From an uncultured Gammaproteobacteria bacterium (GTDB taxonomy: Bacteria; Patescibacteriota; Microgenomatia; Daviesbacterales; UBA10151): a DNA stretch of 64,000 bases. The position numbers and the translations under genes were made by a program. Location of the stretch: NCBI GenBank assembly GCA_964547465.1, contig CAZJNI010000001.1, positions 24,205 through 88,204 of the forward strand, in the 5' to 3' direction. Shown here piece by piece: positions 4,466-46,815 of the stretch (the first letter of the stretch is position 1; each line of letters opens with the position of its first letter). The notes beneath the pieces were generated by a model that made no database searches, was not told the origin of the DNA, and saw nothing but the letters and a program-made list of their open reading frames with translations.

Positions 4466-4852
4466 ATGAAGAATGGCAAAATACAGTCTTTTACAGATTT
4501 GAAAGTTTGGCAAGAAGGGCATATTCTTGTAATTATGGTTTATAAAATAACAAAAAAATTTCCCCAGGAAGAACTATATTCTTTGGTAGACCAAATGAGA
4601 AGAGCAACTTCTTCTATAACAGCTAATATTTCTGAAGGTTTTGGAAGACATTCTTATAAGGAAAAACTGCAATTTTATTATCTATCTCAAGGATCTTTAA
4701 CTGAACTTAAAAATTTCATACTTATTGCAAAAGATGTAGGCTATTTGACTACTAAAGATTTTAATGCATTAGCAGACCAAGCAAATTTAACTCATCAGAT
4801 TTTACAAGGATTTATCAAAAGCACAAAAACATTCATAAATCATAAATCATGA
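4466..4852 (+). CDS. Four-helix-bundle protein (23S rRNA intervening-sequence protein family)
   Basis: DLKVWQ...ITANISEGFGR...signature of the TIGR02436-like family. Confidence 0.65.
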   Translation: MKNGKIQSFTDLKVWQEGHILVIMVYKITKKFPQEELYSLVDQMRRATSSITANISEGFGRHSYKEKLQFYYLSQGSLTELKNFILIAKDVGYLTTKDFNALADQANLTHQILQGFIKSTKTFINHKS

Positions 4853-8315: not shown

Positions 8316-10214
8316 ATGTTTAAGAAATTTATAATGTACAATTTACAATGTACAATTAAGCTTATTTTACTGCTTTTTACTTTTTACTTTTTACATTTTA
8401 CATTTTACATTACTCCAGTTCATGCCCAATCTGCCAGCCCCAGTGCAAACCAGTTACCAGTTACCAGTTACCAGTTACCTACTACTGTCTCCCCTACTTC
8501 TCCGCTTTTTACTGATCTTTTATTAAATAATATGTTTCACAGCTTTTCCTGTTTAGCCATTGGCTCATCTTTCATTGGCCAGCCTTGTTTAACTTATAAA
8601 ATCACCCAAAATGCCCAGGGGGCAATCCAATCCATTCCAGTTCTCTCTCAAACTAATCTCTCCGGAGGAGCGCTGGGGGCTACCACCTCCCTCATAGGCA
8701 TGCTCTACGTAAATCCGCCTGTCAGGACAGCAGATTATTTAGCATCAGTTGGTCAAGGATTAGGAATTGTTAAAGAAGCCCATGCCCAGGTTGGAGGGTC
8801 AGGAGCAGGAGTATTGAGCCCGATCCTATCCCTTTGGCAAGTCTCCAGAAATATTTCTTATCTGATTATGATTATAATTTTTGTAATTATTGGCTTAATG
8901 GTGATGTTCAGACAAAGGATAAATCCCCAAACAGTCATCACCGCCCAGGCAGCGCTTCCGGGTTTGGTGATTGGTCTAATCCTAATAACTTTTTCCTACT
9001 TTTTAGCAGGATTGGTAGCAGATACTGCATTTGTAGGAACAAATTTGGTTGGGGCTTATTTTTCCGCAGTCAGGGGGGAAACAAATACCCCTCAAAATTT
9101 AGTGCAGGATTTAGATACCCTAGATCCTAATACCGGTCGCAAACCAAACCTGATCAGTATTTTTAGCAAATTTGCAGTTGTTGCTAATAAAGAGAAAGTT
9201 ACTGATGTAATAAATTCTTTCTGGGATGATATTAATAATGATGCACAACGCCTTTTGGTAACACTGGCAACCTTTGTTACCGTACAGGTAGCTGGTCAGG
9301 CTACAGAATTTCTTAAACTTGTCCCTAGATTCGGCGAAGGTATAATTGCAACGATACAAGCTGTGGTCGCTCTTAATACTATTACAGGGCCTATAGGGCC
9401 CCAGGCCGTAGTAGGTGCTCTTTTTGCTTTAGTTGTTACAGCCATATTATTATATGCCATGTTTAAACTGTTAATGCGCTTGGTCAATGTTTATTTAACC
9501 ATCATATTTTTAACAATAACGGCTCCTTTCCAATTCTTAGCAGCTGCTTTACCGGGAAGACAGGGAATTGCTACCAATTGGATATTAAGCATGCTTGGAA
9601 ATATCTTGGCATTCCCGGCTGTTTTAGCTGTTTTTTATTTTGTGGCTTTTATTTTAGGTCCTGCAAATAGTCCACACCCATTTATAGTATCTGATTCAGG
9701 TGGAACAACAACTATAGTCAATAATGGTTTAGTCTCCACAGTGAAAGCTGATGGCCCTGTTGAGATTACAGGGCCTAATACTTTTCCTCTTTTTGGGGGA
9801 ATGGGTGTAGATTTTATTAAACTACTTTTGGCTTTCGGGGCATTGGTTGCAACCCCAGCAATCCCGGATATAATTGCCAGAACTGTTGGCAGTGCAAGCC
9901 AGGCAGGGCAATTGATCGGCCAGGAAATCGGTGGAAGCATTGCCGCCGGCAGAGGCTACGGCGGGCAATTACAGCAGGGGGTAGGGGCAGCCAGTGGAAA
10001 TCTTGCCAGAGCCAGAGCATTGTTTAGCACACCAGGACATAGAGTTAATGAATATGGTGAGGTTGTAGAAACATATGCACCTGGTACAGGTGGTCAAATG
10101 GGATCTATTGCTAAAAGCGGGAATATATTCGCTCGTACTATTAGAAGAATCAGTGGCGGACGTATCGGAGGAGTCCCCGAAGCAGAAAAATTCAAAAGTA
10201 CATCTACATCATAG
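8316..10214 (+). CDS. Polytopic membrane protein, VirB6/TrbL-like
   Basis: Signal peptide (TPVHA|Q), at least 6 transmembrane segments, Gly/Ala/Ser-rich C-terminal tail; positioned after the pilin array. Confidence 0.45.
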   Translation: MFKKFIMYNLQCTIKLILLLFTFYFLHFTFYITPVHAQSASPSANQLPVTSYQLPTTVSPTSPLFTDLLLNNMFHSFSCLAIGSSFIGQPCLTYKITQNAQGAIQSIPVLSQTNLSGGALGATTSLIGMLYVNPPVRTADYLASVGQGLGIVKEAHAQVGGSGAGVLSPILSLWQVSRNISYLIMIIIFVIIGLMVMFRQRINPQTVITAQAALPGLVIGLILITFSYFLAGLVADTAFVGTNLVGAYFSAVRGETNTPQNLVQDLDTLDPNTGRKPNLISIFSKFAVVANKEKVTDVINSFWDDINNDAQRLLVTLATFVTVQVAGQATEFLKLVPRFGEGIIATIQAVVALNTITGPIGPQAVVGALFALVVTAILLYAMFKLLMRLVNVYLTIIFLTITAPFQFLAAALPGRQGIATNWILSMLGNILAFPAVLAVFYFVAFILGPANSPHPFIVSDSGGTTTIVNNGLVSTVKADGPVEITGPNTFPLFGGMGVDFIKLLLAFGALVATPAIPDIIARTVGSASQAGQLIGQEIGGSIAAGRGYGGQLQQGVGAASGNLARARALFSTPGHRVNEYGEVVETYAPGTGGQMGSIAKSGNIFARTIRRISGGRIGGVPEAEKFKSTSTS

Positions 10215-13200
10215 TACCATCTTATTAAATATCCAGTCAGACCACGTGCTGCCATCGTAGAATTTTACAGTCTCATCCTTCTTTGCTACTTCAAGCTTAC
10301 CCTTATCATTATTATAATACAATTCTCCTTTTTTAATTATTTTTAAATAGTAATAAGGCTCTAGAAGGAATTTGTAGTAAGGTTCTTCAGATGGATAAAT
10401 CTCCGCTCCCCCTCCAGGTCCATGATCCAACAACCATTCCACATAAGCATCCCAAAACATTCTGGCTATATGTCTTGAAGAACCAGTATTCCTGTCTGTA
10501 TTTATAGCCGGATTATATCTGCCGTCCGGTAAAAAGACATCTGTCTTTCTCAAATCCAACGCCCCTTGCGAATTTCTATTCTCCGAGTACATTGTCCTGA
10601 TTTGCTTTAATGTATCCCATTGCCTACCAAAAGTCTCTATTATCAGATAAAAAGCATCATTTTCAAGTTTCGGATCAGATCTAGATTGATGCAATAGAGT
10701 TCTAATAGCCACTAATTTATCAGAATTATTAAGTGGTTTAAAAAATAAACCTTCATGAGGAAGCCCTGTCTTAGGATCAGTACCCCCAACTAGTAAAAAA
10801 TATAATTGATTGCCGGCATCCATCAAATTAATAAATTTAGTAATACCAAACTGACCAAGTTGTCTTTGGCCGCTTATTTTACCAATTTGATCGTCCATCA
10901 TTGAAACAGCTCCTGTTACTCCTTTACGCCCTAAGTTACCAGCCATGGTATCAGCATACATTGGTGTAGCACCCAGTGCGGCAGCAAATCTTCTGTCAAA
11001 TCTTTTTTGCATTTTGGCAACTAAGTTTTCAATCATCAAAGTGAACCTGCTGTCTCCTCCCTTATCTTCAGTGTAATATCCTGCCTGCATATACTCCGGG
11101 TTCCCATCTGCAGGCAAGAATCTCTGGCTCAAGGCTTTTTTTACCTCAACCCAACTCAATAATGATTCTTCAACTGCAGCATCAAAAACAATATATTCTA
11201 TACCCATTTGATCACCGGGAAATGATCTAACATTACTAAGAGTGGGGTCTAAAGTAAGAAGTAAGCCAGCCAAACTATCTGCATCCTCAAATCGTAACCT
11301 TCCCTCCCTTATTTGTCTTGCCTGTTCAAATACATATTTAGGTACAAGAGTATGAGTATTATTATTTTGATAGGCCCAATAAGTATGAGTAGTATGCAAA
11401 GCTAAGTAACTGCCAACAGCTTTATCAAAATCCAAATGAACCTCTTCCACGTCTTCTACAACCATTTTGCCTGTTTGTGGATCAATTTCCCCTCTGGGTT
11501 GTCTTAACATCATAGGTTGTACTCTTCCTAAAGCCTCAACAGTTATCTCTTTCTTTTTTACATCAAAAGCTGTTGCTTTAAAGTCAGTAAAGTTAAATTT
11601 TGCTTCAAATCCCTTAGTCGCAATTTGCTCAACAGCCATATCCCTAGCCTTCTCAACCATAGCATCCCTGAAAACAGCTCTAAAGTTAGGATATCTGAAG
11701 TTACCTTTGGCATCTTTTGCCTGCACAAATAACTTCAAATCATCTCTGTCCCAAATATTGGAATCGTCTGCATATCTCATCTTTGTCCAATTTACAACTG
11801 CCTGAACAGCTTTTATAGCCAAATGGGTAGGAATTTGGTCAGCATAATTTTCTTTTTCTTTGTCACTTAAACCTTGATAAATTCTCAGCTCAGCTGGATC
11901 TAAAGTATCAACTCTTTTACCCTTTACTATCTCATTCAAAATCCAGCCTACATGTTGCTCCCTTGTCCATTTATTCTTCCTTTCGTCAGGTGATAGTTCA
12001 GAATCCTTATTTTCTCTAACCTTCAGATATTCTAAAATAAAAGGATTTTTATGTACAAAATATATCCCTCCACCTCTGATTGCTTCTTCCCGCATAGCAA
12101 TTTGCATTTGCATAGCAAGTGCAAAGCTGGATTTTGAACTCTCATATGTTTCTTTATACAATTTTCTATCCTCATCACTAATTGTTTTTAAGTCTACTAA
12201 TTTATCAATTAGTACCTCATTCCTCTTTAAAATAACTTCTCCTTGTCTAACTCGCCCGCGGAGGTCAATAATTGCTTGCTGAATTCTACCTAAAGCAACA
12301 GATTCTCTTAAACCTGACGGCAACTGATCTTCAGACAATTGCGTCAATATTTGATAATTTCTAAACATTTGATAATTTCTTAAATGAGCATCTCCTTTAA
12401 TAAAACCGTTCTCATCTCTACCCATTCCTTCATATAAGCTCCTGAATGCTTCTTCAGACTGATGGATACCTATCCGCTCCTGGTTCTCTCTTAAAAGTCT
12501 TCTTGACTCAATATATAAATTCTGATCTTCCTCACTTAGAACTTGTAAATTATTTCCGTTTCTTCTCAATTGAGTTTCAATGGCCTCTAAAAGACGCGCT
12601 CTCTCGTAACGAAACTCCGGATTTGAATATGCAGCCTCATCGCGGTTATCATAATCTTTTAGCACAACACCCATCCCTCTTTCTATAATCTTTCCTTCAA
12701 TCCACATCCTGAAATAATTTTGTATATCCGAACGCCTACCTAATTGTCCTCTTGAGCCTTGGGCATTATAGGCAAGTTCAACCAACGGATCATAATCTAG
12801 TGTAAATTCATATTCTCCGGTTTCTCCTCTTCTTGACCTAAGAGCTCTAACATGCCTTTGGGGGCCTTCATGCAAAGCCAATGCCATCTCACCTTGTTTG
12901 GCTCCATCTTTATTATAATTCTCGATGTTATAGGCGATATGCCAGAAAAAGCCTTCTCCTTCAAATTCCTGTCTTAATTCTTCTGCAAATTCTAGAGTCA
13001 TTTTGTCCGGTCCTTCAGGCCAATTCTTTTGTTGTATTGCCAAATCAGTTGCGTTCCTACTCATCACTTTTTTAAAATTTATCAAATTTTGTATTAACTC
13101 ATTAGGATCATAACCTAGGGCATGAGTAAAAAGCATCTGCAGAAAAGATTCCTTGGCTATAATAAATTGGGCAGGAGTTTTAGCGTTAACTGTATAATAA

Positions 13201-14402
13201 TCCGGATAACCTGCATAAGGTTCCCAGTAAGTTTCTTTTATTGCTCCTTGAGTCTGTTCTATAGGAAGAACCCATTCACCTCTTCGTTCAGGAGACTGCG
13301 GTTCTCCATTAAGTAAACTCTCAAACCTTATTCTGGCCCACCTTAGATAAGGCACCCATACATTATCCAGTCTAGGATTAACTTCTGGATCACTCATTCT
13401 AGCGATGAAAGCATCTTCCCCAGTTATATATGCTAAGGGTCTATCATTACCAGCAGTAACTTCTGTTGCTTGGTATAAAAGCTCCCTAGCTTGAGAAGGA
13501 GAAATAGTACCTCCAGCATATCTTAGATAAATTGAATTTAATCTATCATCTACACCTTTTAAAAGACCCTTCCTTTTTGCTTCATTGAAATATTTCAATA
13601 ACTCCTCTTCTATCTGAGGAATTTCAGCAGCCGGAGTAGTCCTATCACGATATCTTCTTTGAATCAACTCATCTAAGGATCTAACACCTGTAAAATCTTC
13701 TGGAGGAATTTGACTTTCTTGACTAGCTAGTTGAATAAGCTTATCAGCTCTCTCTTTATAAGATTTTTTAATTGCATCAATTAAGGGTTCATCAGGTTCA
13801 GGAATTACGTCCGGATGGGCTTCCTTAAGATTAAAAGAACTTCTATAGTATCTATTTTCTTCAAGTCCATCTACATATTCTATTAATTCCTCATATAAAC
13901 CATTTAAAATTGGCTCATTTTCTTCATTATATCTAACCTCATAAGGAAGTATAGTTTCCATGAAAGCAATCCGCTCCATCAACAATTCACCTCTTTCCGG
14001 ACTAGTCAACCATTCTGGCCCTCTTGCTGGAGGCTCCCTGTCCCCTCCACCCCCCCCTCTATCTACTCCATCTGGGGGTAATGTACTACCTTCTTCCAAT
14101 TCCATTCTGTCTTGTACTCCAACTTGAGTTTGATTTTGAGAAGTGGAAGGGGCTTGCGTATTCTGGGGTTGCTCTTCTGGATTTAAAATTTCAGTAATTT
14201 GAGGTTGCTGGTCTAAAACTAGTGGCTTGGTTTCTCCACCTACAATTTTCCTCCAAAAACTCGGACCCTTTGACTGCTCTTCTTTACCAGCTATAACTAC
14301 ATTTGGCTGATCAGACGGTTTTTCAGCCACAGCAGTTACCCCTTGTGGGGTTTGTGGTGGACCTCCTTCTTGTTGTTCTCCTGCCATAAGTCTTTCTGCC
14401 AT
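10209..14402 (-). CDS. 1397-aa hypothetical cytoplasmic protein with no recognisable domains
   Basis: Long uninterrupted ORF; Arg/Glu-rich; no signal peptide or transmembrane segment; no ATPase motifs seen. Confidence 0.55.
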   Translation of the reverse strand: MAERLMAGEQQEGGPPQTPQGVTAVAEKPSDQPNVVIAGKEEQSKGPSFWRKIVGGETKPLVLDQQPQITEILNPEEQPQNTQAPSTSQNQTQVGVQDRMELEEGSTLPPDGVDRGGGGGDREPPARGPEWLTSPERGELLMERIAFMETILPYEVRYNEENEPILNGLYEELIEYVDGLEENRYYRSSFNLKEAHPDVIPEPDEPLIDAIKKSYKERADKLIQLASQESQIPPEDFTGVRSLDELIQRRYRDRTTPAAEIPQIEEELLKYFNEAKRKGLLKGVDDRLNSIYLRYAGGTISPSQARELLYQATEVTAGNDRPLAYITGEDAFIARMSDPEVNPRLDNVWVPYLRWARIRFESLLNGEPQSPERRGEWVLPIEQTQGAIKETYWEPYAGYPDYYTVNAKTPAQFIIAKESFLQMLFTHALGYDPNELIQNLINFKKVMSRNATDLAIQQKNWPEGPDKMTLEFAEELRQEFEGEGFFWHIAYNIENYNKDGAKQGEMALALHEGPQRHVRALRSRRGETGEYEFTLDYDPLVELAYNAQGSRGQLGRRSDIQNYFRMWIEGKIIERGMGVVLKDYDNRDEAAYSNPEFRYERARLLEAIETQLRRNGNNLQVLSEEDQNLYIESRRLLRENQERIGIHQSEEAFRSLYEGMGRDENGFIKGDAHLRNYQMFRNYQILTQLSEDQLPSGLRESVALGRIQQAIIDLRGRVRQGEVILKRNEVLIDKLVDLKTISDEDRKLYKETYESSKSSFALAMQMQIAMREEAIRGGGIYFVHKNPFILEYLKVRENKDSELSPDERKNKWTREQHVGWILNEIVKGKRVDTLDPAELRIYQGLSDKEKENYADQIPTHLAIKAVQAVVNWTKMRYADDSNIWDRDDLKLFVQAKDAKGNFRYPNFRAVFRDAMVEKARDMAVEQIATKGFEAKFNFTDFKATAFDVKKKEITVEALGRVQPMMLRQPRGEIDPQTGKMVVEDVEEVHLDFDKAVGSYLALHTTHTYWAYQNNNTHTLVPKYVFEQARQIREGRLRFEDADSLAGLLLTLDPTLSNVRSFPGDQMGIEYIVFDAAVEESLLSWVEVKKALSQRFLPADGNPEYMQAGYYTEDKGGDSRFTLMIENLVAKMQKRFDRRFAAALGATPMYADTMAGNLGRKGVTGAVSMMDDQIGKISGQRQLGQFGITKFINLMDAGNQLYFLLVGGTDPKTGLPHEGLFFKPLNNSDKLVAIRTLLHQSRSDPKLENDAFYLIIETFGRQWDTLKQIRTMYSENRNSQGALDLRKTDVFLPDGRYNPAINTDRNTGSSRHIARMFWDAYVEWLLDHGPGGGAEIYPSEEPYYKFLLEPYYYLKIIKKGELYYNNDKGKLEVAKKDETVKFYDGSTWSDWIFNKMVL

Positions 14403-14521
14403 GATAGTTTGTAGTTGGTAGTTAGTAGTATGTAGTTTGCAACAAACTACGAACTCGAAAACTCTATGGCTAATTCCAGTGTAGAGCTTCGGTTAACTAA
14501 CTGTCAACTTTCCTTTCTGCG

Positions 14522-14584
14522 GTAAGTTTACAGTGAGCGAAGTTAAACTGCTTGATTTATTCCTTACAAAATCCTGACGGAATT
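14522..14584. repeat. Cassette boundary repeat A, copy 1
   Basis: GTAAGTTTACAGTGAGCGAAGTTAAACTGCTTGATTTATTCCTTACAAAATCCTGACGGAATT; near-identical at 16688-16749, partial at 15987-16022. Confidence 0.8.
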
Positions 14585-14598
14585 GAGGGTAAAAATTG

Positions 14599-15756
14599 CT
14601 AAAGTTGAAAACCGTAAATGGTCTTAATATCAGAATACTCAAATGAAACCATATTACTTACCTTTAATTTAAGCTCTTTAACTAATCTCTGCAGTCTTGA
14701 TTTATCAAAAACAGTAGCTTTTGTTTTAACTTCATAAGCTATCTGTTTGTTAAGAATAAAATCTATCTCCACCCCACTTTTACGCTGATAGTAGTTTATA
14801 CCTCCTTTAGCACGTAACTGATTATAAACTGTATTTTCAAAAAGACTGCCAAAAGGAATATTTTGTATGTTGTTAACTAAACCACTGTCACAAAGATATA
14901 CCTTTTTTGCCGATCTTATTTCCGTATCTTTATTTGTGGAGTATGGCAAGATAAGCGATATAAAATACGTCCCCTCCAAAAAGGCAAGATATTCCGTCAA
15001 TGTTACTCTGGTTATACCTAATTCAGTAGATAATTTTTGCACGTCAATTTTGCTGCCTACCCTACTTATTAGCAGGAGTATTAAATCTCTAACCGCCTGA
15101 TTATTTCTAAATCCCCCGATGTTTAAAACCTCTTTATTAAAATAAGCACTAAATATATCCATTAGGGCTTCGCGCTTCTCCTCTATTGATGTTTTTATAA
15201 CTACGCCTGGAAAACCACCAAACTCAATATATTCTTTGTACAATGGAATTATTATCTGATAAATAGAATCAGAAATCTTTTCAGGGATAATAATTTTACT
15301 TTCTTTAAGAAGCAAAAATTCTTCAAAATCCAAAGGAAATAATTCGTAAATTATTTTTCTGCCAGCAAGAGATTCGGAAAATAAATTTTTAAGATAAAAA
15401 CTACTTGAACCTGTAAGAAAAAACTTAATCTGATAATGATCGATCAGATATTTAACTACAGATGGTAAGTTTGAAACATTTTGTATTTCGTCTAAAAATA
15501 TATAGGCTTTTTGAGATAAATCTATACCTAAAGTCTGGAATTTATATTTAATTGCCTCATAATTTACTTCTTCAAAGTACTTTTGGTTAACAGGATTTTC
15601 CAAATCAAGAAAAATTTTATTATCACTCTTTATAGAATCATGTACTTGCTTCAGCAATATTGTTTTACCAACTCTACGCATACCAGTCACCACAATCGCT
15701 TCCGGCGCATCTATTCTGGAGGTAATTTGCTTAAATAATTTCCTTCTCACAATCAC
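14599..15756 (-). CDS. AAA+ ATPase (AAA_14/DUF4143-type), paralog-like of the 1687 gene
   Basis: Walker A GMRRVGKT, Walker B IFLDEIQ. Confidence 0.7.
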   Translation of the reverse strand: MIVRRKLFKQITSRIDAPEAIVVTGMRRVGKTILLKQVHDSIKSDNKIFLDLENPVNQKYFEEVNYEAIKYKFQTLGIDLSQKAYIFLDEIQNVSNLPSVVKYLIDHYQIKFFLTGSSSFYLKNLFSESLAGRKIIYELFPLDFEEFLLLKESKIIIPEKISDSIYQIIIPLYKEYIEFGGFPGVVIKTSIEEKREALMDIFSAYFNKEVLNIGGFRNNQAVRDLILLLISRVGSKIDVQKLSTELGITRVTLTEYLAFLEGTYFISLILPYSTNKDTEIRSAKKVYLCDSGLVNNIQNIPFGSLFENTVYNQLRAKGGINYYQRKSGVEIDFILNKQIAYEVKTKATVFDKSRLQRLVKELKLKVSNMVSFEYSDIKTIYGFQL

Positions 15757-15851
15757 TAATATACATTAAGTATTACTTTTTGTCAAGTACTAGTATCAAA
15801 CTCGTTTGTTGATCTGCCATAAGTCTTTCTGCCATGTATTCCTTTCTCTGG

Positions 15852-15890
15852 AAAATTCCATGGCCTGCTTTCAGCATAGAATTTCCCAAA
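15852..15890. repeat. Cassette boundary repeat B, copy 1
   Basis: AAAATTCCATGGCCTGCTTTCAGCATAGAATTTCCCAAA; copies at 17509-17564 and 18404-18441, which extend with AAATCCTGACGGGATT shared with repeat A. Confidence 0.8.
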
Positions 15891-15986
15891 CTTTGTGTCA
15901 AATTTTTTTAATGTGTCATGAGTCATGTGTCAGGTATCATGCCAAGACCATGACACTTGATACATGATACTTGATACACTACAAGT

Positions 15987-16022
15987 TGCTTGATTTATTC
16001 CTTACAAAATCCTGACGGAATT
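15987..16022. repeat. Repeat A, partial copy
   Basis: TGCTTGATTTATTCCTTACAAAATCCTGACGGAATT, abutting the stop codon of the PIN gene. Confidence 0.75.
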
Positions 16023-16395
16023 ATGCCTGAATTAAGGAGAGATCATACTTCCAGATCTTTTCGTCAGATGTTATGAGAGTTAAATTTTCTACTTTTGTCT
16101 GGGATATTAAAATCCTATCAAATGGGTCTTTATGAATACCAGGTAATTTCTCAACTTCCAATACATGATTAATATCTATGGAAAGTAGAACAAAGTTACT
16201 TTTTTTAATTCCTCCTAGGATATCTTTTGGGATTTTTAAACCTTTTCTCTTTTTAATAATGATCTCCCAAATAGTTGTAACACTAACAAATATTTCGTTG
16301 TTTGGATCAGAAATTTTACTTTTAATATCTCGGGGTAATCTTTTATTTTCCTCCATAGCCCAAATAAAAACATGGGTATCTAAGAGATAGCGCAT
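16021..16395 (-). CDS. vapC: PIN-domain toxin (VapC-like)
   Basis: MRYLLDTHVFIW..., PIN acidic residues. Confidence 0.75.
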   Translation of the reverse strand: MRYLLDTHVFIWAMEENKRLPRDIKSKISDPNNEIFVSVTTIWEIIIKKRKGLKIPKDILGGIKKSNFVLLSIDINHVLEVEKLPGIHKDPFDRILISQTKVENLTLITSDEKIWKYDLSLIQA

Positions 16396-16635
16396 TTAAA
16401 TGTCACCTTCATAGAAGAGCTTATTGATCTCTTCATCCTCATCATCAAAATTATCTGGAATAAAAACCTTTCCTTTCCACAGCCCCAGTTTGCGTGGCTT
16501 AAGCTTTTCTTTATAAAAAGAAAGTTTGGCCACTGGTTTACCTGCCTTGGCGATAATAACCTCCTCACCATTTAAGGTTTTCTCAATTAACTTAGATAAA
16601 TTTGTTTTTGCATCATGAATATTCACAACTTGCAT
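16396..16635 (-). CDS. Type II antitoxin (Phd/YefM-like)
   Basis: 79-aa protein upstream of and abutting the PIN gene; AKTNLSKLIE motif. Confidence 0.55.
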   Translation of the reverse strand: MQVVNIHDAKTNLSKLIEKTLNGEEVIIAKAGKPVAKLSFYKEKLKPRKLGLWKGKVFIPDNFDDEDEEINKLFYEGDI

Positions 16636-16687
16636 ATTATTTATATAATAGCTAACTTAGCTAACTTTGTCAAGTGCAAGTCTGGGA

Positions 16688-16749
16688 TAAGTTTACAGTG
16701 AGCGAAGTTAAACTGCTTGATTTATTCCTTACAAAATCCTGACGGAATT
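16688..16749. repeat. Repeat A, copy 2
   Basis: Near-identical to 14522-14584. Confidence 0.8.
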
Positions 16750-16753
16750 AAAT

Positions 16754-17179
16754 CTAAAGTAGATTCATCTTCCGCAGAAAAGGCAAAAATGCTTCCGGCT
16801 TTACAATCTTTGCGTCTTTCCACATTTGATCTGGTAAATCTAAAAGATCTTTATCCCGGGTAATAATGTAATCAACATGGGCAGTTTCAGCCAGCTCCAG
16901 GACAAAATTATCTTTGGGGTCGCGGCAAACAATAATCTTTATTTTGGTTTTAACTGCTATACCTTTTTTCAATACTGCTTTGACCTTCTTACGTATCTCT
17001 TCACTTGAGTTAAACTCGTTTAATTTCCTAAATATTTCATTTGTTAAATCAAAGGAAATAAAAAGTTTAAGTTTATTATCAATAATAAGATCGATAATTT
17101 TCTCTACCATTCCACCAAACACAGATGCGGAGATAACCATGTTGGTATCCAGCACTATTTTAAGCATGCTTGTGGTCAT
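16754..17179 (-). CDS. PIN-domain toxin (TIGR00305-like)
   Basis: VLDTNMVIS...ITRDKDLLDL. Confidence 0.65.
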   Translation of the reverse strand: MTTSMLKIVLDTNMVISASVFGGMVEKIIDLIIDNKLKLFISFDLTNEIFRKLNEFNSSEEIRKKVKAVLKKGIAVKTKIKIIVCRDPKDNFVLELAETAHVDYIITRDKDLLDLPDQMWKDAKIVKPEAFLPFLRKMNLL

Positions 17180-17465
17180 CCAGAAAGATGTTATAAAACT
17201 GCTGTTCTGTGACCTTTTTTGGATCTAAACCTTTCTCTCTCATAAGTTTATTGCCTAATTTCTTACCCTCTTTCTTTAAATGTTCCCACGCTTCCCTGAT
17301 TTTCTGATCTTTTTCTAAAAATTCCTCTTGTTCGTTAATATACTTCTCGGACAAAGCCACTTTAATAATATCTGCTTCGGAAAGCAGCTGATACTTACTG
17401 CGTAAAAATGTCAAAACTCTATTAACATCAGGAGTTCTGGTTAATCTTATTTGTGCTTGTGACAT
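17160..17465 (-). CDS. Putative antitoxin partner
   Basis: Small ORF overlapping the PIN gene start; operon position. Confidence 0.35.
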   Translation of the reverse strand: MSQAQIRLTRTPDVNRVLTFLRSKYQLLSEADIIKVALSEKYINEQEEFLEKDQKIREAWEHLKKEGKKLGNKLMREKGLDPKKVTEQQFYNIFLDDHKHA

Positions 17466-17508
17466 ATAGTACCCATTTTAGGGTATTAAGTGTTAAGAGT
17501 CAAGGGGT

Positions 17509-17564
17509 CAAAATTCCATGGCCTGCTTTCAGCATAGAATTTCCCAAAAAATCCTGACGGGATT
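17509..17564. repeat. Repeat B, copy 2
   Basis: Sequence identity to 15852-15890 plus AAATCCTGACGGGATT. Confidence 0.8.
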
Positions 17565-17573
17565 GAGCTTGGA

Positions 17574-18002
17574 TTATTTATTTGCTCTAAGAATTCCCAT
17601 AAATTCTTCGGGGGTGATAATTTTAATCCCTTGGTATTGATTAAGGTCAAGTAAATCTCTATCTCTACTGACAATATAATCAGCTTTCCCTTCAAGCGCT
17701 GCTGAAAGAATTTTATCATCTGATGGATCTCTTACTACTTCTATTCTAAAATTACCGGTGACAGATAAACTGACTCTGGATAATCCGTTCATTATCTCCT
17801 GTAACTCTTTATCAGATCTTTTGTGGGCTTTTATCACTTTTTCTCGATGCAAAACTTCATCAAGCTCTGACAAAATTTGTGGAGAAATTACCAGTACAAA
17901 GTGATTATCTTTGCAATTTTGATAAATCTCAGCAGCTACAGACGATCCAATGTTGATAACAGCGCTAACTAAAGTATTCGTGTCTAATACTGTTCGAATC
18001 AT
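17574..18002 (-). CDS. PIN-domain toxin (TIGR00305-like), paralog of the 16754 gene
   Basis: VLDTNTLVSA...IVSRDRDLLDL. Confidence 0.65.
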   Translation of the reverse strand: MIRTVLDTNTLVSAVINIGSSVAAEIYQNCKDNHFVLVISPQILSELDEVLHREKVIKAHKRSDKELQEIMNGLSRVSLSVTGNFRIEVVRDPSDDKILSAALEGKADYIVSRDRDLLDLNQYQGIKIITPEEFMGILRANK

Positions 18003-18316
18003 TCACCTCTAGCCCTTTTCTCTGCCCTAACCACTTCCACCTCCTCATCAATAATTTTATCTAATTCTACTGGGTCCATTTTAGGGATTCTAGCTCGTAT
18101 TTTATCAAGTTTTTTGAAACTTTTTTCCCATGCAGTCTTGCTTAACCTCTTCCTAGGATCCAAAAGCTTTTCGTATTCATCCAAACTGATAAGAACAGCT
18201 GCTTCCCGGTTGTACTTTTTAACCACTACCTTATCATTAGCATATGTTACGCGGTTGATAATATCAGCCAGGTTGGAACGAAGCTCATCAATGGAAACGA
18301 TATTATCGTTTAACAT
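17999..18316 (-). CDS. Antitoxin (Phd/YefM-like)
   Basis: IVSIDELRSNL...VVVKKYNREAAVLISLDEYEKL. Confidence 0.5.
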   Translation of the reverse strand: MLNDNIVSIDELRSNLADIINRVTYANDKVVVKKYNREAAVLISLDEYEKLLDPRKRLSKTAWEKSFKKLDKIRARIPKMDPVELDKIIDEEVEVVRAEKRARGE

Positions 18317-18403
18317 GTCTATACATTATAACAAATCTAGCAATTTGTCAAGTCTGCTACATTCGTCATGTTTTTCCCTTTCGACTTTGCTCAAGGTTAT
18401 TAA

Positions 18404-18441
18404 CTTCAGCATAGAATTTCCCAAAAAATCCTGACGGGATT
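18404..18441. repeat. Repeat B, copy 3 (partial)
   Basis: CTTCAGCATAGAATTTCCCAAAAAATCCTGACGGGATT. Confidence 0.75.
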
Positions 18442-18453
18442 AAGGGTAATCCT

Positions 18454-18903
18454 TTAGAAATCCTTTATATCTAATACTTTAATTTCATTATATAACTTGA
18501 AATCTTTGACATTCGCAGTAACTATTTGTTTAATTTGGTTTGACAACATGGTGGCCACAAGATATGCATCAAAAACTTGCCCGTTTTTAATCTTATTCTT
18601 GGTCATAAGCATGGATAATATCTTAATAGTTTCCTGATTAGGAATAACTACCTTAAAAGGTAATTTCAAATAATATTCAGATAGTTCTTGAGCTTTTAGC
18701 GATGAAAGTGGTTTAGCAACTCTTCTTTGATCTGTAATGATTGAATAAAATTCTAAAAGATTCTGTTGAGTCAAAATTCCTCTGAAGCGCCCTGCAATCA
18801 CTTCTTTGACTAAAGCTAAAGATTTTCTATGAAAAGGGCTATCCTGATTATGAGCATAGACTAAAATATTAGTATCAAAAAGCAACGGGTCAGATACTAT
18901 CAT
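18454..18903 (-). CDS. PIN-domain toxin
   Basis: LLFDTNILVYA... PIN-like N-terminus. Confidence 0.55.
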   Translation of the reverse strand: MIVSDPLLFDTNILVYAHNQDSPFHRKSLALVKEVIAGRFRGILTQQNLLEFYSIITDQRRVAKPLSSLKAQELSEYYLKLPFKVVIPNQETIKILSMLMTKNKIKNGQVFDAYLVATMLSNQIKQIVTANVKDFKLYNEIKVLDIKDF

Positions 18904-19111
18904 AGATTTGCACTCTTCTCATGTCACCTTTAATCTCACCCATGTTATAGACTTTTAAATTGTATTTAACACTCTTTCTTATTTGGGGTTTGCCAAGATA
19001 GCTTTCTAAAGCTTGATTAACTATATCTGCAAAAGCAATTCTTTCATCTATAGCTTTTTTGCGGGCCTCTTTAAATATATCTTCCTGCAGCCTTACTGTA
19101 GTACGGATCAT
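18890..19111 (-). CDS. Ribbon-helix-helix antitoxin
   Basis: 73-aa ORF overlapping the toxin start; RHH-like N-terminus. Confidence 0.45.
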   Translation of the reverse strand: MIRTTVRLQEDIFKEARKKAIDERIAFADIVNQALESYLGKPQIRKSVKYNLKVYNMGEIKGDMRRVQIYDSI

Positions 19112-19187
19112 AATAATGTCAGTTTAGCATCAAAACATCTTGATGTCAAGATGCATTATCTTAGCTAACCTTGTTAGCAATTAACAT

Positions 19188-20594
19188 TCAAGCAGCTTTT
19201 ACTAATTCTTGAGTTTCTTCTTTTTCTTCAGGATTATCTGCCTCAGCTGAGGTACCACAACCAAAAACATAACCGCATCCACATGAAGGTGTATAATCTC
19301 CCGCAGCTCTATTTGATTCATCTTCAAATCTTAAATTACAATCAGGACAATGGTAATGCCCATCCTTAGGCATTCCACAATCTCCACATACCCCACCCAA
19401 ACCCTCCCTACCTAAAGATATCCTTCCTAAACCTAAACTTATCCCTCTGAGTGATGCCATTGAACTTGAACCAGCACATCCTGCTCTGGTCCTTAAAAAA
19501 GCTGCAGCCATCATAAACTTATCCTGATCTCTAATTTGTTCTGAAACCCAACTGTTTTGAGGAGACAACCTATCAAAATATCTATTTGGTGTTTTTTGCA
19601 AATAATCAACTGTGATATTTAGTATTGTTTCCTCTATTATGCTGGCTATTTCAGCTTGGATAATTGAGTGATTTAAATTACTAAACTTTCTCCAAAGATT
19701 ATTTGTTAATTCTTTAATATGCTCTTCTATCTCCTTATTAAAATTCAGAAGCTGATTCATTCTTTGAATATCTGCTCTAGTTTGAGCTACTGATCTTATC
19801 TCTATAGTGCCGTCTTCCTGAACTAATCTAAAGTCAGCATCTCCTCTGATAGAGACAATTTTATCTAACACATATTCTGCAGGATTTTTTAAAGCTTGGG
19901 AGTAAGAAAAAAGAGCTGGGTTCCCAACAATATTAGATACTCTTTCTAACTGAGTCTGACCTGTTAATAAACCTTCAGATACACCAAGACTTTCTGAGAG
20001 TTCTTTTGATTGTCTTTCATCTAAATCTGAAACTAAAGTTAATCCATGCAACTCACCCTGCTGATCAGTCCAGAAAACCATGGTTTGGTTGTTTTTATAA
20101 GTAATTCCTGTTCCATCATTTTTGAAAAACCCGGAATGACCAAATGGACTATTAATAACAGCTATGCTATCAGCATTATTAGAAAGATATCCATCAACTT
20201 TTATTGAGGCCTGTTTAACCCCTCCTTGTCTCTCCTGATCAGTTATCCCATCTACCACCAATATTCCATTATTTCCCACCATTCTTCTGACCCCATTCAC
20301 TCTTTCTATTCTATTTTTATGCGGCAAAACAGTCTTTGACTGGATATATTCCAAAATATAACTTCTGATGTTGGTCTCCAGCTCTCCTAATGAAACTGCC
20401 CAAGCCTCTTCATTGTTTTTTCCTTCTCTTAGATTTTGATTGTAATTTTTAAATAAGCGTTTTATTTCTAAAGGCAGTATAAAACCTGTTCCTTGTAATC
20501 GAGATTGTTCACCTAGGTAAGGAGTTATTTGTACCTCTTGAGGCCTTTCAGTAGGGAAAATTCGGTTGTTTAATGGAAGTACTTCTAATGACAT
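19188..20594 (-). CDS. Hypothetical protein with C-terminal Cys-rich zinc-ribbon
   Basis: CGDCGMPKDGHYHCPDCN...CGCGYVFGCG; AGGAG Shine-Dalgarno 4 nt upstream of the ATG. Confidence 0.5.
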   Translation of the reverse strand: MSLEVLPLNNRIFPTERPQEVQITPYLGEQSRLQGTGFILPLEIKRLFKNYNQNLREGKNNEEAWAVSLGELETNIRSYILEYIQSKTVLPHKNRIERVNGVRRMVGNNGILVVDGITDQERQGGVKQASIKVDGYLSNNADSIAVINSPFGHSGFFKNDGTGITYKNNQTMVFWTDQQGELHGLTLVSDLDERQSKELSESLGVSEGLLTGQTQLERVSNIVGNPALFSYSQALKNPAEYVLDKIVSIRGDADFRLVQEDGTIEIRSVAQTRADIQRMNQLLNFNKEIEEHIKELTNNLWRKFSNLNHSIIQAEIASIIEETILNITVDYLQKTPNRYFDRLSPQNSWVSEQIRDQDKFMMAAAFLRTRAGCAGSSSMASLRGISLGLGRISLGREGLGGVCGDCGMPKDGHYHCPDCNLRFEDESNRAAGDYTPSCGCGYVFGCGTSAEADNPEEKEETQELVKAA

Positions 20595-20917
20595 ATGCTC
20601 CTGTTCACGGGACTAAAAATGTGGTCGGTCTCCTGACTTAAAGTTAGGTTGTAGGTGGTAGGTTTTAGGTTATAGCTCTCTTGCGATCACTACAACCTAC
20701 TCACTACTAGCTACCAACTAGCTAATCACAGTTGCGGCACAGCCCAGGATTTACACCTGGTTCCCATTGTTCCTTTCAGCCAAAGGCTGATGGTACACCA
20801 CACCTTTAAAATAACATCTCAAAACTCAAATGTCAAAACTCAAAACTATAACTCAAATGTTAAAACTTTTAAAGATTTTAGATTTAAGATATAGATTTGA
20901 CATTTGAGATCTAAGAT

Positions 20918-30779: not shown

Positions 30780-31454
30780 ATGGAATTAACCAAAGGTCAA
30801 AAAACCGCTTTATCTTTACTGGCAGACTCCTCTCTGCGCGGTAAGTTCTATTGGACAGGAGGAACGCTGCTTGCTTATGAGTATCTTCAACACAGATTCT
30901 CGGAAGATTTGGATTTTTTTAGTGAAGAAAGCTTTCCCTTTGATGAGATTAACAACTTTATTCAAGACCTTAAAGAAAAAGGACATTTTGGAAAAGTGGA
31001 GTACCAAAAAATCTTTGACAGGCATCAGTTTTTACTTAAAAATAAGGAAGAGTTAAAAATTGAATTCGTCCACTACAATCACGATAAAAAAAGATTAGGT
31101 AAAAAAAGAGAAGTTTTGGGTGTTTGGGTAGACTCTTTGGAAGATTTGGCTGCCAACAAAGCTTTGGCCTATTTTGACAGGAATGAACCAAAAGATTTAT
31201 TTGATATTTATTTTTTGTTAACAAAAGGCAAATTTAGTTTAAAAAAGTTATTGGAACTGGCTTTGAGAAAATTCGGGGTTAAATTGCCTGAGAGTTTGTT
31301 TTGGAGCGAGGCTTTTAAAAAGATTGGGTTACTCTCTAAAATAAAACCACTGCTTCTGGAAAAAGATAGTAAAAAGAAACAACAGCTTTTGGATAAAGTA
31401 GAGCGCTATTTTAAAGAAAAATCCGTCCTTTATTTGAGAAAAAATCTGCAGTAA
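30780..31454 (+). CDS. Nucleotidyltransferase, AbiEii/AbiGii toxin family
   Basis: GG...SEDLDFF nucleotidyltransferase motif and length. Confidence 0.6.
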   Translation: MELTKGQKTALSLLADSSLRGKFYWTGGTLLAYEYLQHRFSEDLDFFSEESFPFDEINNFIQDLKEKGHFGKVEYQKIFDRHQFLLKNKEELKIEFVHYNHDKKRLGKKREVLGVWVDSLEDLAANKALAYFDRNEPKDLFDIYFLLTKGKFSLKKLLELALRKFGVKLPESLFWSEAFKKIGLLSKIKPLLLEKDSKKKQQLLDKVERYFKEKSVLYLRKNLQ

Positions 31455-46410: not shown

Positions 46411-46815
46411 TTAAATATTTTTCTCATAAATTATCTTTCCCTCCTCAATCTTGATTAGTTTATTAATAGTCACCTTAATAAGCGAATCTTTTAGAAGATC
46501 CTTGCTAACTAATTTTAATATTTTTTGACAAACCTTGGTAATATTAGTTGGGGTTGTTGAGCCTACAGAGATAATAATTACGCCTGGAAATCCTTTTAAA
46601 GAAGATTGCTCATATTCATTGAAATCTCTGTCTAATGTAATAAGCACCCGACCTAACTTTCTACTTATGAGAAGGTGAAACCTATCACTTTTTTGAATAA
46701 AGTTTTTATCATAAGCATGGATAATAGAAATTCCTTGTGATTTTAAGTAGGTAACTACAGGAACAGGAAAACATTCATCTGCATATAATTGAATGTGTGA
46801 TTTTTTAGAGGGCAT
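46411..46815 (-). CDS. DUF5615-like putative toxin (PIN-like)
   Basis: Paired with the DUF433-like gene; YADECFP N-terminus. Confidence 0.45.
   Translation of the reverse strand: MPSKKSHIQLYADECFPVPVVTYLKSQGISIIHAYDKNFIQKSDRFHLLISRKLGRVLITLDRDFNEYEQSSLKGFPGVIIISVGSTTPTNITKVCQKILKLVSKDLLKDSLIKVTINKLIKIEEGKIIYEKNI

Follow-up and report, generated by a model that had tools for sequence, protein, structure and literature searches.

Toxin-antitoxin and defence cassettes appear to accumulate in the promoter and leader region of a large gene in a Patescibacteria chromosomal T4SS locus

Chromosomal integrons and superintegron arrays, for example those of Vibrio, often carry toxin-antitoxin (TA) cassettes. 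The usual integration hotspots are either tRNA-linked and integrase-driven or exchanged through recombination within long flanking genes. Natural transformation in Acinetobacter and Streptococcus provides known cases of homology-facilitated illegitimate recombination and Campbell-type integration, and PhoB/OmpR-type promoters have direct repeats in 10-11 bp phase in place of a -35 element. In Patescibacteria, a chromosomal T4SS has been described near dnaA/dnaN (Quinonero-Coronel et al. 2025, PMC12102498). The window analysed here, a 64-kb stretch of DNA, matches this locus type as presented there, with VirB4-like, PrgI, TraC-like, CHAP and VirB2-like pilin genes, adjacent dnaN and dnaA, and no relaxase; a term search of that paper's text, and its chromosomal-context section, yielded no mention of a variable slot for cassettes, of E1 or of a B12 riboswitch, all of which are reported below.

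The host is a Daviesbacteria-like (CPR) genome, and the cassette slot lies within the T4SS locus. All genes from 10209 to 20594, and all features given below, are on the minus strand. On its 5' side the slot is bordered by p468 (19188..20594), a conserved gene of unassigned function with no Pfam match, whose homologues were found only in Daviesbacteria and Woesebacteria. The transcription unit that begins with p468 is headed by a cobalamin riboswitch (20606..20817; Rfam RF00174, 61.8 bits), the conserved 5' edge of the slot; RF00174 occupies the equivalent position in nine related loci, and AdoCbl-II in a tenth. The other border is a large conserved gene of 1397 aa (10209..14402), whose product has no known domain and neither a Pfam nor a PDB match, and whose homologues (35-71% identity) lie downstream of the slot in every case. 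The insertion target is the promoter and leader region of this large gene. The ancestral order, still seen in relatives, would have been B12 riboswitch, p468, E1, leader and large gene.

In the window the slot is filled by four PIN toxin-antitoxin operons, all co-directional, plus a single AAA_14/DUF4143 ATPase, each ending in one of two related repeats, A or B. The sequence-only reading had described such an array, and both its composition (Pfam; uniform strand) and the repeat at the end of each unit (repeat alignment) were borne out. All four PIN toxins were confirmed by Pfam, and each has a small upstream partner, two of these being Phd/YefM antitoxins and two having no family. TA1 (18454..19149) consists of a promoter at 19149-19121 (TTGACA-17-TAAACT), a 73-aa antitoxin (18890-19111) and a PIN/VapC toxin (18454-18903), which matches Pfam PIN and scores 72.6 bits against TIGR00028 VapC, slightly under the 73.6 cut-off. 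TA2 (17574..18359) pairs a Phd/YefM antitoxin (17999-18316) with a PIN_3 toxin (17574-18002; also NCBIfam), TA3 (16754..17506) a 101-aa antitoxin (17160-17465) with a PIN_3 toxin (16754-17179; also TIGR00305), and TA4 (16021..16673) a Phd/YefM antitoxin (16396-16635) with a PIN toxin (16021-16395). The ATPase cassette (14599..15792) has a promoter at 15786-15758 and an AAA_14+DUF4143 gene (14599-15756; Pfam, NCBIfam, PADLOC) of the candidate defence family PDC-S01 (PADLOC). In a promoter scan, the best sigma-70-like minus-strand matches coincided with cassette starts (19149, 17503, 16673 and 15786).

We compared about 45 related loci, a biased sample in which most were retrieved via the exact E1 pattern and just seven slots via an unbiased protein search. 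Cassette content at this exact position differs, as the sequence-only reading would lead one to expect, ranging from an empty slot to five or more cassettes. The kinds include VapBC/PIN, BrnTA, HigBA-like (Gp49/HTH), AbiE (AbiEii) and PDC-S01 ATPases. L076 and L078 carry a single TA pair and L082 carries two; L079 and L080 have an ATPase there and L081 an uncharacterised gene, while L087 and L097 are empty. TA1 aligns with L083 at 76% DNA identity exactly over 19149-18453; homology of TA2 to L100 begins at 18359, that of TA3 to L125, L082 and L117 at 17506/17504, and that of TA4 to L117 (87% DNA identity) at 16673, and the left end of the ATPase cassette is identical in L083, L092 and L121. 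Some cassettes share 83-95% protein identity between genomes whose flanking genes share only 29-64%, as in L117, where AT79/PIN124 are 95/83% identical to the window and PrgI and the large gene 64% and ~29%. The ATPase cassette is a real insertion: in L083, PrgI and mem632 are 53-54% identical to the window and the large gene 24-29%, yet the ATPase reaches 86% (DNA) and 89% (protein). The slot is hypervariable, and our best explanation takes it to be an accretion hotspot for toxin-antitoxin and defence cassettes.

Upstream of TA1, positions 19150..19187 likely hold a decayed TA4-type promoter/operator with an 'ATGCA' pseudo-start (TAACAAGGTTAGCTAAG vs TGACAAAGTTAGCTAAG; repeat family D3), with a local alignment score of 31 against 18.4 +/- 3.9 (maximum 39) in shuffles. 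This remnant was likely left behind upstream of an inserted TA1-TA3 block; a TA4-type operon directly follows the p468-position gene in L078, L117 and L086.

The core shared by the repeats, E1, is about 48 nt long and reads TCAGGATTTT-N3-AG-N7-TCAAGCA, with three T-N-A-G type direct repeats and, in the alignment of copies, invariant blocks in 11-bp phase. The shared motif AATCCTGACGGRATT occurs five times in the 64 kb, always in the array region, where 0.02 occurrences are expected by chance. By alignment, repeat A appears to be E1 with its -10, and repeat B the first part of E1 joined to a second, TATGCT promoter of the large gene and its 5' UTR. Repeat A has two full copies, 92-94% identical (92% over 78 nt). 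The copy at 14516..14593 (-10 TAAACT at 14530-14525) is predicted to act as the large gene's functional upstream promoter, and the one at 16681..16758 (-10 TAAACT at 16695-16690) is now directed into TA4. In a partial copy (15986-16022 in the repeat alignment, annotated as 15986..16031) E1 is cut directly after TCAAGCA and the -10 is lost (ATCATG at +18). The long copy of repeat B (17509..17573) contains the first part of E1, the TATGCT promoter and the large-gene 5' UTR (GAAAGCAGGCCATGGAATTTT), and over 17509-17564 has an exact 36-39 nt stretch in common with 15852-15890; its segment 17528-17567 is 98% identical to 18405-18444. In the short copy (18404..18449) the first part of E1 (..CCGTCAGGATTTT) runs directly into TTGGGAAATTCTATGCTGAA, which is the -10 region in the sigma-70-type promoter of the large gene; this fusion is also found in L117 and L119. 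At 14478..14507 the promoter scan places the large gene's second promoter, of sigma-70 type (TTGACA-18-TACACT), which is conserved in L079, L080 and L081.

The 23-nt duplication of the start of the 1397-aa gene was confirmed at 14381-14403 and 15814-15836 (none expected by chance), 1-3 nt from where the sequence-only reading had placed it, and extends to 31 nt with 28/31 identity. It belongs to a stranded older leader copy (15806..15901) with a TTGACA-17-TATGCT promoter, 5' UTR, Shine-Dalgarno and the first 10 codons, the pseudo-start spanning 15836-15806. This copy is 74-92% identical to the true large-gene leader in L076, L086, L125, L122, L117 and L113, and a repeat-B-like sequence stands immediately 5' of the large-gene ATG in L076 and six other loci. 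The repeats thus appear to be reiterated pieces of the 1397-aa gene's native promoter, leader and first codons, as judged from these alignments, and not integron-type recombination sites.

Could such pieces stem from a single TA operon that was duplicated locally in tandem, along with the intergenic region downstream of it, and then diverged, with no horizontal input? The similarity of the two full A copies would fit, and the pseudo-start junctions resemble tandem-duplication joints. However, the four TA pairs are of different families (PIN vs PIN_3; Phd/YefM vs two unrelated antitoxins), each is closer to other genomes (57-95% protein identity) than to its array mates, and the E1 copies in other arrays are of different subtypes. 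E1 copies are also no more alike within one array (mean similarity 0.66) than between genomes (0.62), which fits each cassette having been imported with its own E1. We regard duplication as a very improbable origin of the whole array; it may be the source of single steps, such as the two A copies.

A TANNNT -10-like hexamer lies exactly 18 nt downstream of E1 in 49 of 55 distinct copies, compared with counts of 0-3 at the other tested offsets and 11 at one of them. E1 immediately follows the last cassette in every relative, or p468 when the slot is empty, and thus occurs in empty slots as well. It is also positioned at, or overlapping, the start of a divergent gene that encodes a 357-405 aa protein (L107, L118, L101, L102, L095 and L129-L132), three of these proteins showing Trans_reg_C. 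This regulator gene was not found within the 64-kb window; in one case it is on the same 1.15-Mb contig as a slot locus (L109). Given the -10 at fixed +18 and the overlap with the divergent regulator start, we read E1 as a regulated promoter, from architecture and gene neighbourhood. Since E1 also makes up the divergent promoter of that regulator at its separate locus in these genomes, the AAA-like/OmpR-type winged-helix regulator probably binds E1; an alternative sigma factor is possible. A point against this reading is a weak helix of 5 bp, two of its pairs covarying, between TCAAGCA and the -10.

The hairpin ascribed to both repeat types held up in part: its motif is common to the repeats, but it is perfect only in repeat B, as repeat A requires a G-U pair on the transcribed strand, and it is not conserved among homologues, its 5' arm varying without compensation and 10 of 21 sequences lacking the middle pair. 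A U run comes after the 5-bp stem AAUCC/GGAUU of repeat B, and the element adjoins stop codons, as would suit ordinary intrinsic terminators, or REP-like extragenic palindromes, unlinked to cassette boundaries. Yet the terminator scan calls none at the repeats, and the stem has only two G-C pairs, with 74% of cells pairing across homologues and no compensatory changes. The motif is absent from the rest of the window despite many other operon ends, a search of 185,579 species genomes gave 74 exact 19-mer matches, every one of them unrelated and due to chance, and E1 lies upstream of genes where it accompanies the regulator. We find this explanation scarcely credible. The combination of genome-wide terminators with unvarying cassette content, which would have spoken against the sequence-only reading, is not what was found.

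The same reading had likened the array to integron cassettes. Its discrete, exchangeable cassettes are real, but the cassettes have their own promoters, the repeats are pieces of a native leader, and no attC-like bulged hairpin was found: the predicted folding of repeat A and the long B copy does not surpass that of shuffled sequences, and just the two shortest B-related segments do better. Its remark that no integrase is visible and that the repeats are not canonical attC sites agrees with our scans and folding. No integrase, resolvase or transposase domain was detected in about 60 window ORFs of at least 110 aa (four others of this size all lie inside annotated genes) or in about 28 slot and neighbouring ORFs from related loci, and the precomputed Pfam tables for L076-L082 list none. 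Overall the sequence-only reading was partly supported, the truth lying between an integron and ordinary terminators.

Across loci, cassettes keep a constant left end, located at the -35 of their own promoter. On the target side the breakpoints differ: they fall after GGATTTT, ATCAG, TAAGGA, TTTAAT, TCAA or TCAAGCA, after the -10, within the 5' UTR or inside large-gene codons 5-10. Pseudo-starts of the large gene precede cassettes in the window, L079, L082, L125 and L113. The proposal that the ATPase cassette was inserted by recombination at the repeats therefore stands as to the insertion but not the site, its left junction being in codon 10 of the large gene, outside any repeat.

These junctions bear on an integron-like site-specific system, in which E1 would be the 3' attachment site of each cassette, an attC analogue, and the recombinase would be encoded elsewhere or go unrecognised (p468, the large protein or the DUF4143 ATPase). 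Such a system would account for the uniformly oriented E1 behind each cassette, both in the window and in the arrays of 12 or more other loci, for a cassette-side left end that stays the same across several independent contexts and for cassettes far more similar than their flanks; several truncated copies break right after TCAGGAT(TTT), where L122 and L113 carry an inserted 28-nt unit duplicating TCAGGAT. It sits poorly with the occurrence of E1 in two cassette-free settings, the empty slots and the regulator locus, with the fixed -10 at +18, with the cassettes' own promoters and with junctions even inside coding sequence; the p468 AF2 model (pLDDT 78) matched no recombinase-like fold. We consider site-specific insertion unlikely, if still deserving some weight. 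The non-conserved hairpin, the absent attC-like fold, the lack of a detected recombinase and the varying target-side junctions favour homology-anchored additive recombination.

Under homology-anchored accretion, self-contained cassettes that bring their own genes and sigma-70 promoter/operator would have been inserted successively into a target of about 200 nt, from the E1 start to codon 10 of the large gene. Every insertion would strand a truncated E1, leader or start codons upstream of the incoming cassette and place a complete promoter copy downstream, so that the large gene would always retain an intact promoter. The events could use general recombination, with the conserved E1, leader and 5' coding sequence as its anchor, and proceed by Campbell-type integration of circles or by homology-facilitated illegitimate recombination after DNA uptake. 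Addiction to the resident TA modules may block replacement, so that only additive events would survive. We hold this whole explanation, comprising the accretion hotspot, E1 as a regulated promoter and additive homology-anchored insertion, to be reasonably probable.

Compared with known systems, the window resembles a Vibrio-type superintegron in its co-directional, small, exchangeable, TA-rich cassettes with a related repeat at each 3' end, in content that varies between relatives and in an array plausibly stabilised by TA modules. It differs in having no IntI or attI, in a repeat without the R''/L''/L'/R' imperfect palindrome that is instead a resident promoter, present also where cassettes are absent, and in imprecise target-side junctions. 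With integration hotspots, additive flexible islands and defence islets it shares a fixed position between conserved genes and TA and defence cargo that differs by strain or species and is common to several lineages; unlike the usual hotspots, the slot is the ~200-nt promoter and leader of one gene, and each addition duplicates part of this promoter, giving a repeat-bounded array without a visible recombinase. The three short direct repeats of E1 in 11-bp phase end at the -35 position, with no TTGACA, a -10 hexamer at fixed distance and an adjacent Trans_reg_C gene, as in PhoB/OmpR-type activator-dependent promoters, although the candidate regulator has an AAA/STAND-like N-terminal part instead of a receiver domain. 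As in homology-facilitated illegitimate recombination, one side is anchored in homology (E1, leader, large-gene 5' end) and the other is variable and illegitimate, and the target segment is duplicated on both sides of the insert; relative to the Acinetobacter and Streptococcus systems, the donor molecules, the uptake route and any RecA dependence are here inferred.

All genes between 10209 and 20594 lie on the minus strand. In transcription order, the region begins with a cobalamin riboswitch (Rfam RF00174, 20817-20606) directly upstream of p468, a 468-aa gene that always forms the 5' border of the variable interval ending at the 1397-aa large gene (hereafter, the slot). Four PIN toxin-antitoxin (TA) cassettes follow: TA1 (73-aa antitoxin, 149-aa PIN toxin), closed by a short copy of repeat B; TA2 (105-aa Phd/YefM antitoxin, 142-aa PIN_3 toxin), closed by a long copy of repeat B; TA3 (101-aa antitoxin, 141-aa PIN_3 toxin), closed by repeat A; and TA4 (79-aa Phd/YefM antitoxin, 124-aa PIN toxin), closed by a partial repeat A. 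Downstream of the latter are a 95-nt spacer, a repeat-B-like piece, a Shine-Dalgarno sequence and a 31-nt copy of the large-gene start, which precede an AAA_14+DUF4143 ATPase (14599-15756, minus strand), again followed by repeat A and then by the large gene itself (14402-10209). The 15-mer common to the repeats was found in five copies in the 64 kb, all of them in the array (0.02 expected), and the duplicated 23-mer of the large-gene start has a chance expectation of 0. The array described in the sequence-only reading was thus borne out, with positions off by 1-7 nt.

In type II TA systems of the VapBC kind, one promoter serves a small antitoxin gene and the PIN toxin gene that follows, overlaps or abuts it. 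The four array pairs have this architecture and are predicted to be VapBC-like: a PIN or PIN_3 domain was found in all four toxins and Phd/YefM in two of the four antitoxins, and the two family-less antitoxins are still kept as pairs with their toxins in related loci (L083, L125, L082, and L117). Each cassette starts with its own TTGACA-17-TAnnnT promoter, with a palindromic operator directly seen in TA1, TA3, and TA4. The ATPase matched the PADLOC profile PDC-S01 (E = 2e-63), which assigns it to this candidate defence family (AAA_14 + DUF4143). A 2434-bp Logan contig (L001, SRR12113430) is identical to window positions 19250-18412 and terminates within repeat B. The repeats evidently cause breaks in assembly, and arrays of this kind are therefore probably under-represented in short-read MAGs.

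After the last cassette of every relative we found the element RTCAGRATTTT-N3-AS-N7-TCAAGCA, the core common to repeats A and B (designated E1), with constant spacing and often with TTTAnCCTCAA before it. In L076, a repeat-B-like piece (GGGAAGTTCTATGCT..GGCCATGGATTTCCC) directly precedes the Shine-Dalgarno sequence and ATG of the large gene, and the stranded copy in the window (15903-15814) is 74-92% identical to the true large-gene leader in L076 and five other loci. The repeats are therefore fragments of the intergenic region that natively precedes the large gene. Repeat A is E1 with its following 30 nt, repeat B is made up of the E1 core's first 17 nt attached to a sigma-70-type promoter (TTGACA-17-TATGCT) and 5' UTR, and the 23-31 nt duplicate matches codons 1-10 of the large gene. 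Two loci (L122 1463-1510 and 3093-3237; L113 3623-3695) carry a 28-nt unit with an internal palindrome, ACGTTTATGAAACTAAACGTATCAGGAT, inserted in E1 directly after TCAGGAT, which it duplicates; it is tandemly repeated in L122. A conserved ~90-nt element (..GGACCTTCTTGTTCGCAGTGTAAAT...CTTCGAAGAACCTTGAA..) lies between an E1 5' stump and a full E1 in L081 (5871-5965) and L086 (592-690), and may represent a small insertion or a further variant of the leader.

Homologues of the 1397-aa protein (35-71% identity) come from Daviesbacteria and always show the same synteny, with an interval between the p468-position gene and the large gene that differs in content: an HTH_17 antitoxin with PIN_3 in L076, Phd/YefM with PIN in L078, RHH with PIN and then a 101-aa product with PIN_3 in L082, the ATPase in L079 and L080, and a 156-aa gene in L081. 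Searching with a cross-species consensus built from the sequence that follows the last cassette, we recovered 46 JGI metagenome loci, ~36 of them clearly homologous, and nearly all of these fall in the same slot by tblastn. Only this consensus pattern worked, a 25-mer specific to the window's repeats having 0 matches in the JGI metagenomes. The slot is empty in L087 and L097, where the p468 stop directly abuts E1, and holds up to five E1-bounded units in L113, L122, and L117. Cassette types among the relatives include PIN/VapBC, BrnT/BrnA, Gp49 with HTH_3, AbiEii, 23S_rRNA_IVP, and up to three tandem DUF4143 ATPases. Compared with the window, L083 shares 89% identity in the ATPase and 73/70% in the TA1 proteins (AT73/PIN149), whereas its flanks share 53% (PrgI), 54% (mem632), and 24-29% (large gene); L117 shares 95/83% in the TA4 proteins (AT79/PIN124) versus 64% in PrgI. 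Cassettes so much more alike than their flanks argue for movement between lineages, with landing in the same place. The proposal that the cassettes are exchangeable thus held, slot content ranging from empty to five units among the related loci compared, and we interpret the slot as a conserved accretion hotspot for mobile TA and defence cassettes in a CPR lineage.

The array neighbourhood is a Patescibacteria chromosomal T4SS locus adjoining dnaN and dnaA. The MPF-FATA-like type of such loci combines a VirB4-like ATPase, PrgI/VirB3-like and TraC-like proteins, and VirB2-like pilins near dnaA/dnaN, without a relaxase. Judged by gene content, the locus fits this type: the window has matches to PrgI, a VirB4/TraG-like ATPase (P-loop_TraG/AAA_10), six VirB2-like T4SS_pilin genes, DnaN, and DnaA, with a TraC-like gene documented only for syntenic relatives (L076, L081, and L082). 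The locus type has already been described (PMC12102498); neither a term search of that paper nor its section on chromosomal context yielded a mention of the cassette slot. The large protein had no sequence match in Pfam or PDB, and the AF2 model of p468, predicted with confidence (pLDDT 78), had no significant match to any solved fold and none that was recombinase-like.

Several further features of the T4SS locus were observed. The cobalamin riboswitch, which lies inside it, also precedes the p468-position gene in nine relatives (L076 7889-8084, L078 1744-1888, L081 3385-3508, L082 6325-6451, L087, L097, L106, L117, and L128), and the L113 contig has an AdoCbl-II riboswitch match. A second AAA_14/DUF4143 ATPase (1687-2820, plus strand; PDC-S01, E = 2e-142), with no adjacent E1, precedes the pilin genes at the opposite end of the locus. 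The pilin genes are repeatedly interspersed with genes for 23S_rRNA_IVP (bAvd-like four-helix bundle) proteins (window 4466-4852, plus strand; L078 1027-1416; L082 21280-21666 and 23538-23849; L128 7373-7753), and in L128 one also sits within the cassette slot.

The hairpin in which both repeat types had been said to end is not kept across relatives. Its 3' arm GGATT is invariant and its 5' arm variable with no compensatory change; pairing holds in only 74% of cells, and 10 of 21 sequences lack the middle pair. Rho-independent terminators have a stable G+C-rich stem followed by a U tract and are conserved in structure. The scan called no terminator at the repeats, the stem has 5 bp with two G-C pairs, and the variation of its 5' arm is uncompensated.

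The conserved features of E1 point instead to a promoter. Its invariant blocks begin at alignment columns 21, 32, and 43 and constitute three direct repeats of the form T-N-A-G, phased at 11 bp. A TANNNT hexamer (TAAACT, TAAGAT, TAAAAT, TAGAGT, and others) follows TCAAGCA by exactly 18 nt in 49 of the 55 distinct full copies; at other offsets the count was 0-3, except for a single offset with 11. The sequence between TCAAGCA and TANNNT belongs to several unrelated families, yet the spacing is fixed. The conserved TGTAAACT of repeat A is accordingly best assigned, from this spacing, as the -10 following E1, and this explains it better than a structured RNA, the consensus structure of the repeats being a single 5-bp helix of -2.4 kcal/mol with two covarying pairs. 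That helix lies between TCAAGCA and the -10 (alignment A1 columns 47-51 / 64-68; window 14547-14543 with 14530-14526), and its covariation (C-G in 11 versus G-C in 6 sequences; U-A in 17 versus C-G in 2) is too weak to call a structure. A sigma-70 promoter inside E1 itself was rejected, no TTGACA-like -35 being found at 16-18 nt from the -10. In activator-dependent promoters of the OmpR/PhoB type, phased direct repeats lie at or upstream of the -35, with the -10 at a fixed distance; E1 shows this predicted architecture of phased repeats and fixed -10.

A candidate regulator emerged from gene neighbourhood. In L107, L118, L101, L102, and L095, as well as at the regulator loci L129-L132, E1 adjoins or overlaps the start of a divergent gene with a 357-405 aa product, an association with a Trans_reg_C-family gene that extends over at least four lineages. 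A C-terminal winged helix of the OmpR/PhoB type (Trans_reg_C) was demonstrated in three of these proteins, and further E1 copies precede the next genes at these loci. The family is highly conserved in Daviesbacteria and Microgenomates and occurs in genomes having the slot; in one case, the regulator gene and a slot locus (L109) share a 1.15-Mb contig. No E1 was found in the window outside the array, and the E1 pattern had 0 matches in viral contigs. We predict that E1 is the regulated promoter/operator of a small regulon; its promoter function is probable, and binding by the AAA-like/Trans_reg_C regulator is about as likely as not.

At L107 (9257-14444), L118, and L129-L132, the AAA-like + Trans_reg_C regulator gene and E1 are divergently arranged. 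Genes for a radical SAM enzyme, a peptidase MA, and an 88-aa Pro/Cys-rich peptide come after E1 in L107, a RiPP-like arrangement; more E1 copies then stand before a 376-424 aa Gly-rich protein at the regulator locus. A HicA-like ORF (~112 aa) lies between two E1 copies in L118 and L132. TA-type genes outside the array in the window (AbiEii, 30780-31454; a DUF5615 PIN-like gene, 46411-46815; a PIN toxin with a 126-aa partner, 61606-62402) have no E1 next to them.

Comparing the same cassette at the nucleotide level across different genomes indicated how the array was built. The cassette-side left end is constant and coincides with the -35 of the promoter that the cassette itself carries, 36-43 nt upstream of the first start codon (TA1, 19149; TA2, 18359; TA3, 17506; TA4, 16673; ATPase, 15792). 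The sequence upstream of this point varies by genome and in each case is a stretch of the target region, of differing length: an E1 stump that ends in GGATTTT, ATCAG, TAAGGA, TTTAAT, TCAA or TCAAGCA; E1 with the -10; the sigma-70 promoter with part of the 5' UTR; or the Shine-Dalgarno sequence with the first 5-10 large-gene codons. Such large-gene pseudo-starts precede cassettes in the window (15836-15806), L079, L082, L125, and L113. Downstream, every cassette has E1, starting at the E1 5' end. Directly after the p468 stop, 19187-19150 appears to hold a decayed TA4-type promoter followed by ATGCA, which suggests, with moderate support, that codon 2 of the TA4 antitoxin was the entry point of the TA1-TA3 block.

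Variable target breakpoints, duplication from E1 to the breakpoint, and the lack of a detected recombinase fit general recombination, in which conserved E1, leader, and 5' coding sequence would serve as the anchor and the other joint would be illegitimate. Candidate routes are homology-facilitated illegitimate recombination and the integration of a circle in the Campbell manner, and arrays may grow by addition if resident TA modules penalise replacement. Copies of E1 are no more alike within one array (0.66) than between genomes (0.62), apart from the window's two A copies (0.94), suggesting that cassettes usually arrive with their downstream E1. A site-specific enzyme acting in trans would suit the constant left ends, the breakpoint that recurs immediately after TCAGGAT(TTT), and the 28-nt unit found there in L122/L113; set against the variable breakpoints on the target side, we consider such an enzyme unlikely. 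It would place junctions always at one nucleotide within TCAGGATTTT, and general recombination, which we favor, anywhere in the shared homology.

The sequence-only reading had likened the array to an integron. Integrons encode the tyrosine recombinase IntI beside the cassette array, their cassettes are mostly promoterless and expressed from a common Pc, and their attC sites are imperfect inverted repeats of 57-141 nt with R''/L'' and L'/R' boxes that fold into a bulged hairpin. The likeness failed on all three points. No Phage_integrase/integrase, resolvase or transposase domain was detected in ~60 scanned window ORFs of at least 110 aa, nor any recombinase domain in a sample of slot ORFs from related loci, and each cassette has its own promoter. 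An attC-like bulged hairpin is not formed: repeat A and the long B copy did not fold better than shuffled sequence, either as RNA or as DNA (z -0.6 to -1.9), only the two shortest B-related segments folded better (z -2.9 and -3.7), as short local hairpins, and the single GTTRRRY-like box has no inverse partner. An Rfam search over 14350-19250 gave nothing at the repeats at the gathering threshold or at E-values up to 10. The 19-mer hairpin core had 74 single exact matches across 185,579 species genomes, in unrelated taxa and with at most 18 of 42 flanking bases alike, and these were attributed to chance. A dif/Xer-type (11-6-11) or other dyad core was also discarded, as the window symmetries ATTCC..GGAAT and AGTTTA..TAAACT are lost in relatives (alignment inspected by eye). 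We conclude that E1 is neither a terminator nor an attC. What stands of the earlier interpretation is real mobile cassettes in a conserved hotspot; their boundaries are reiterated copies of the large gene's promoter, leader, and start codon, not integron-type sites.

CPR/Patescibacteria have tiny genomes and, to our knowledge, few mobile elements have been described there, with gene exchange and T4SS regulation little understood. New here, on the strength of comparative sequence analysis, are a TA/defence hotspot in a CPR lineage whose repeat boundaries are a predicted regulated promoter, and a candidate regulon (E1 with an AAA-like/winged-helix regulator) plus a B12 riboswitch wired to the T4SS locus. 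The hotspot is a defined one, in which cassettes are swapped between species only distantly related at flanking genes. It is doubtful that E1 is dual, acting both as the regulated promoter of the T4SS-associated large gene and as the attachment site of an integrase-less or trans-acting cassette mobilisation system in Microgenomates; if it were, the system would be a CPR analogue of the integron, shuttling TA/defence cassettes between species, possibly via DNA uptake by the adjacent T4SS/pilus machinery. For genome annotators, the array is a caution that TA arrays bounded by repeats may be other than integrons: a conserved promoter can serve both as portable homology and as the boundary repeat of an array, and so mimic an integron without an integrase.
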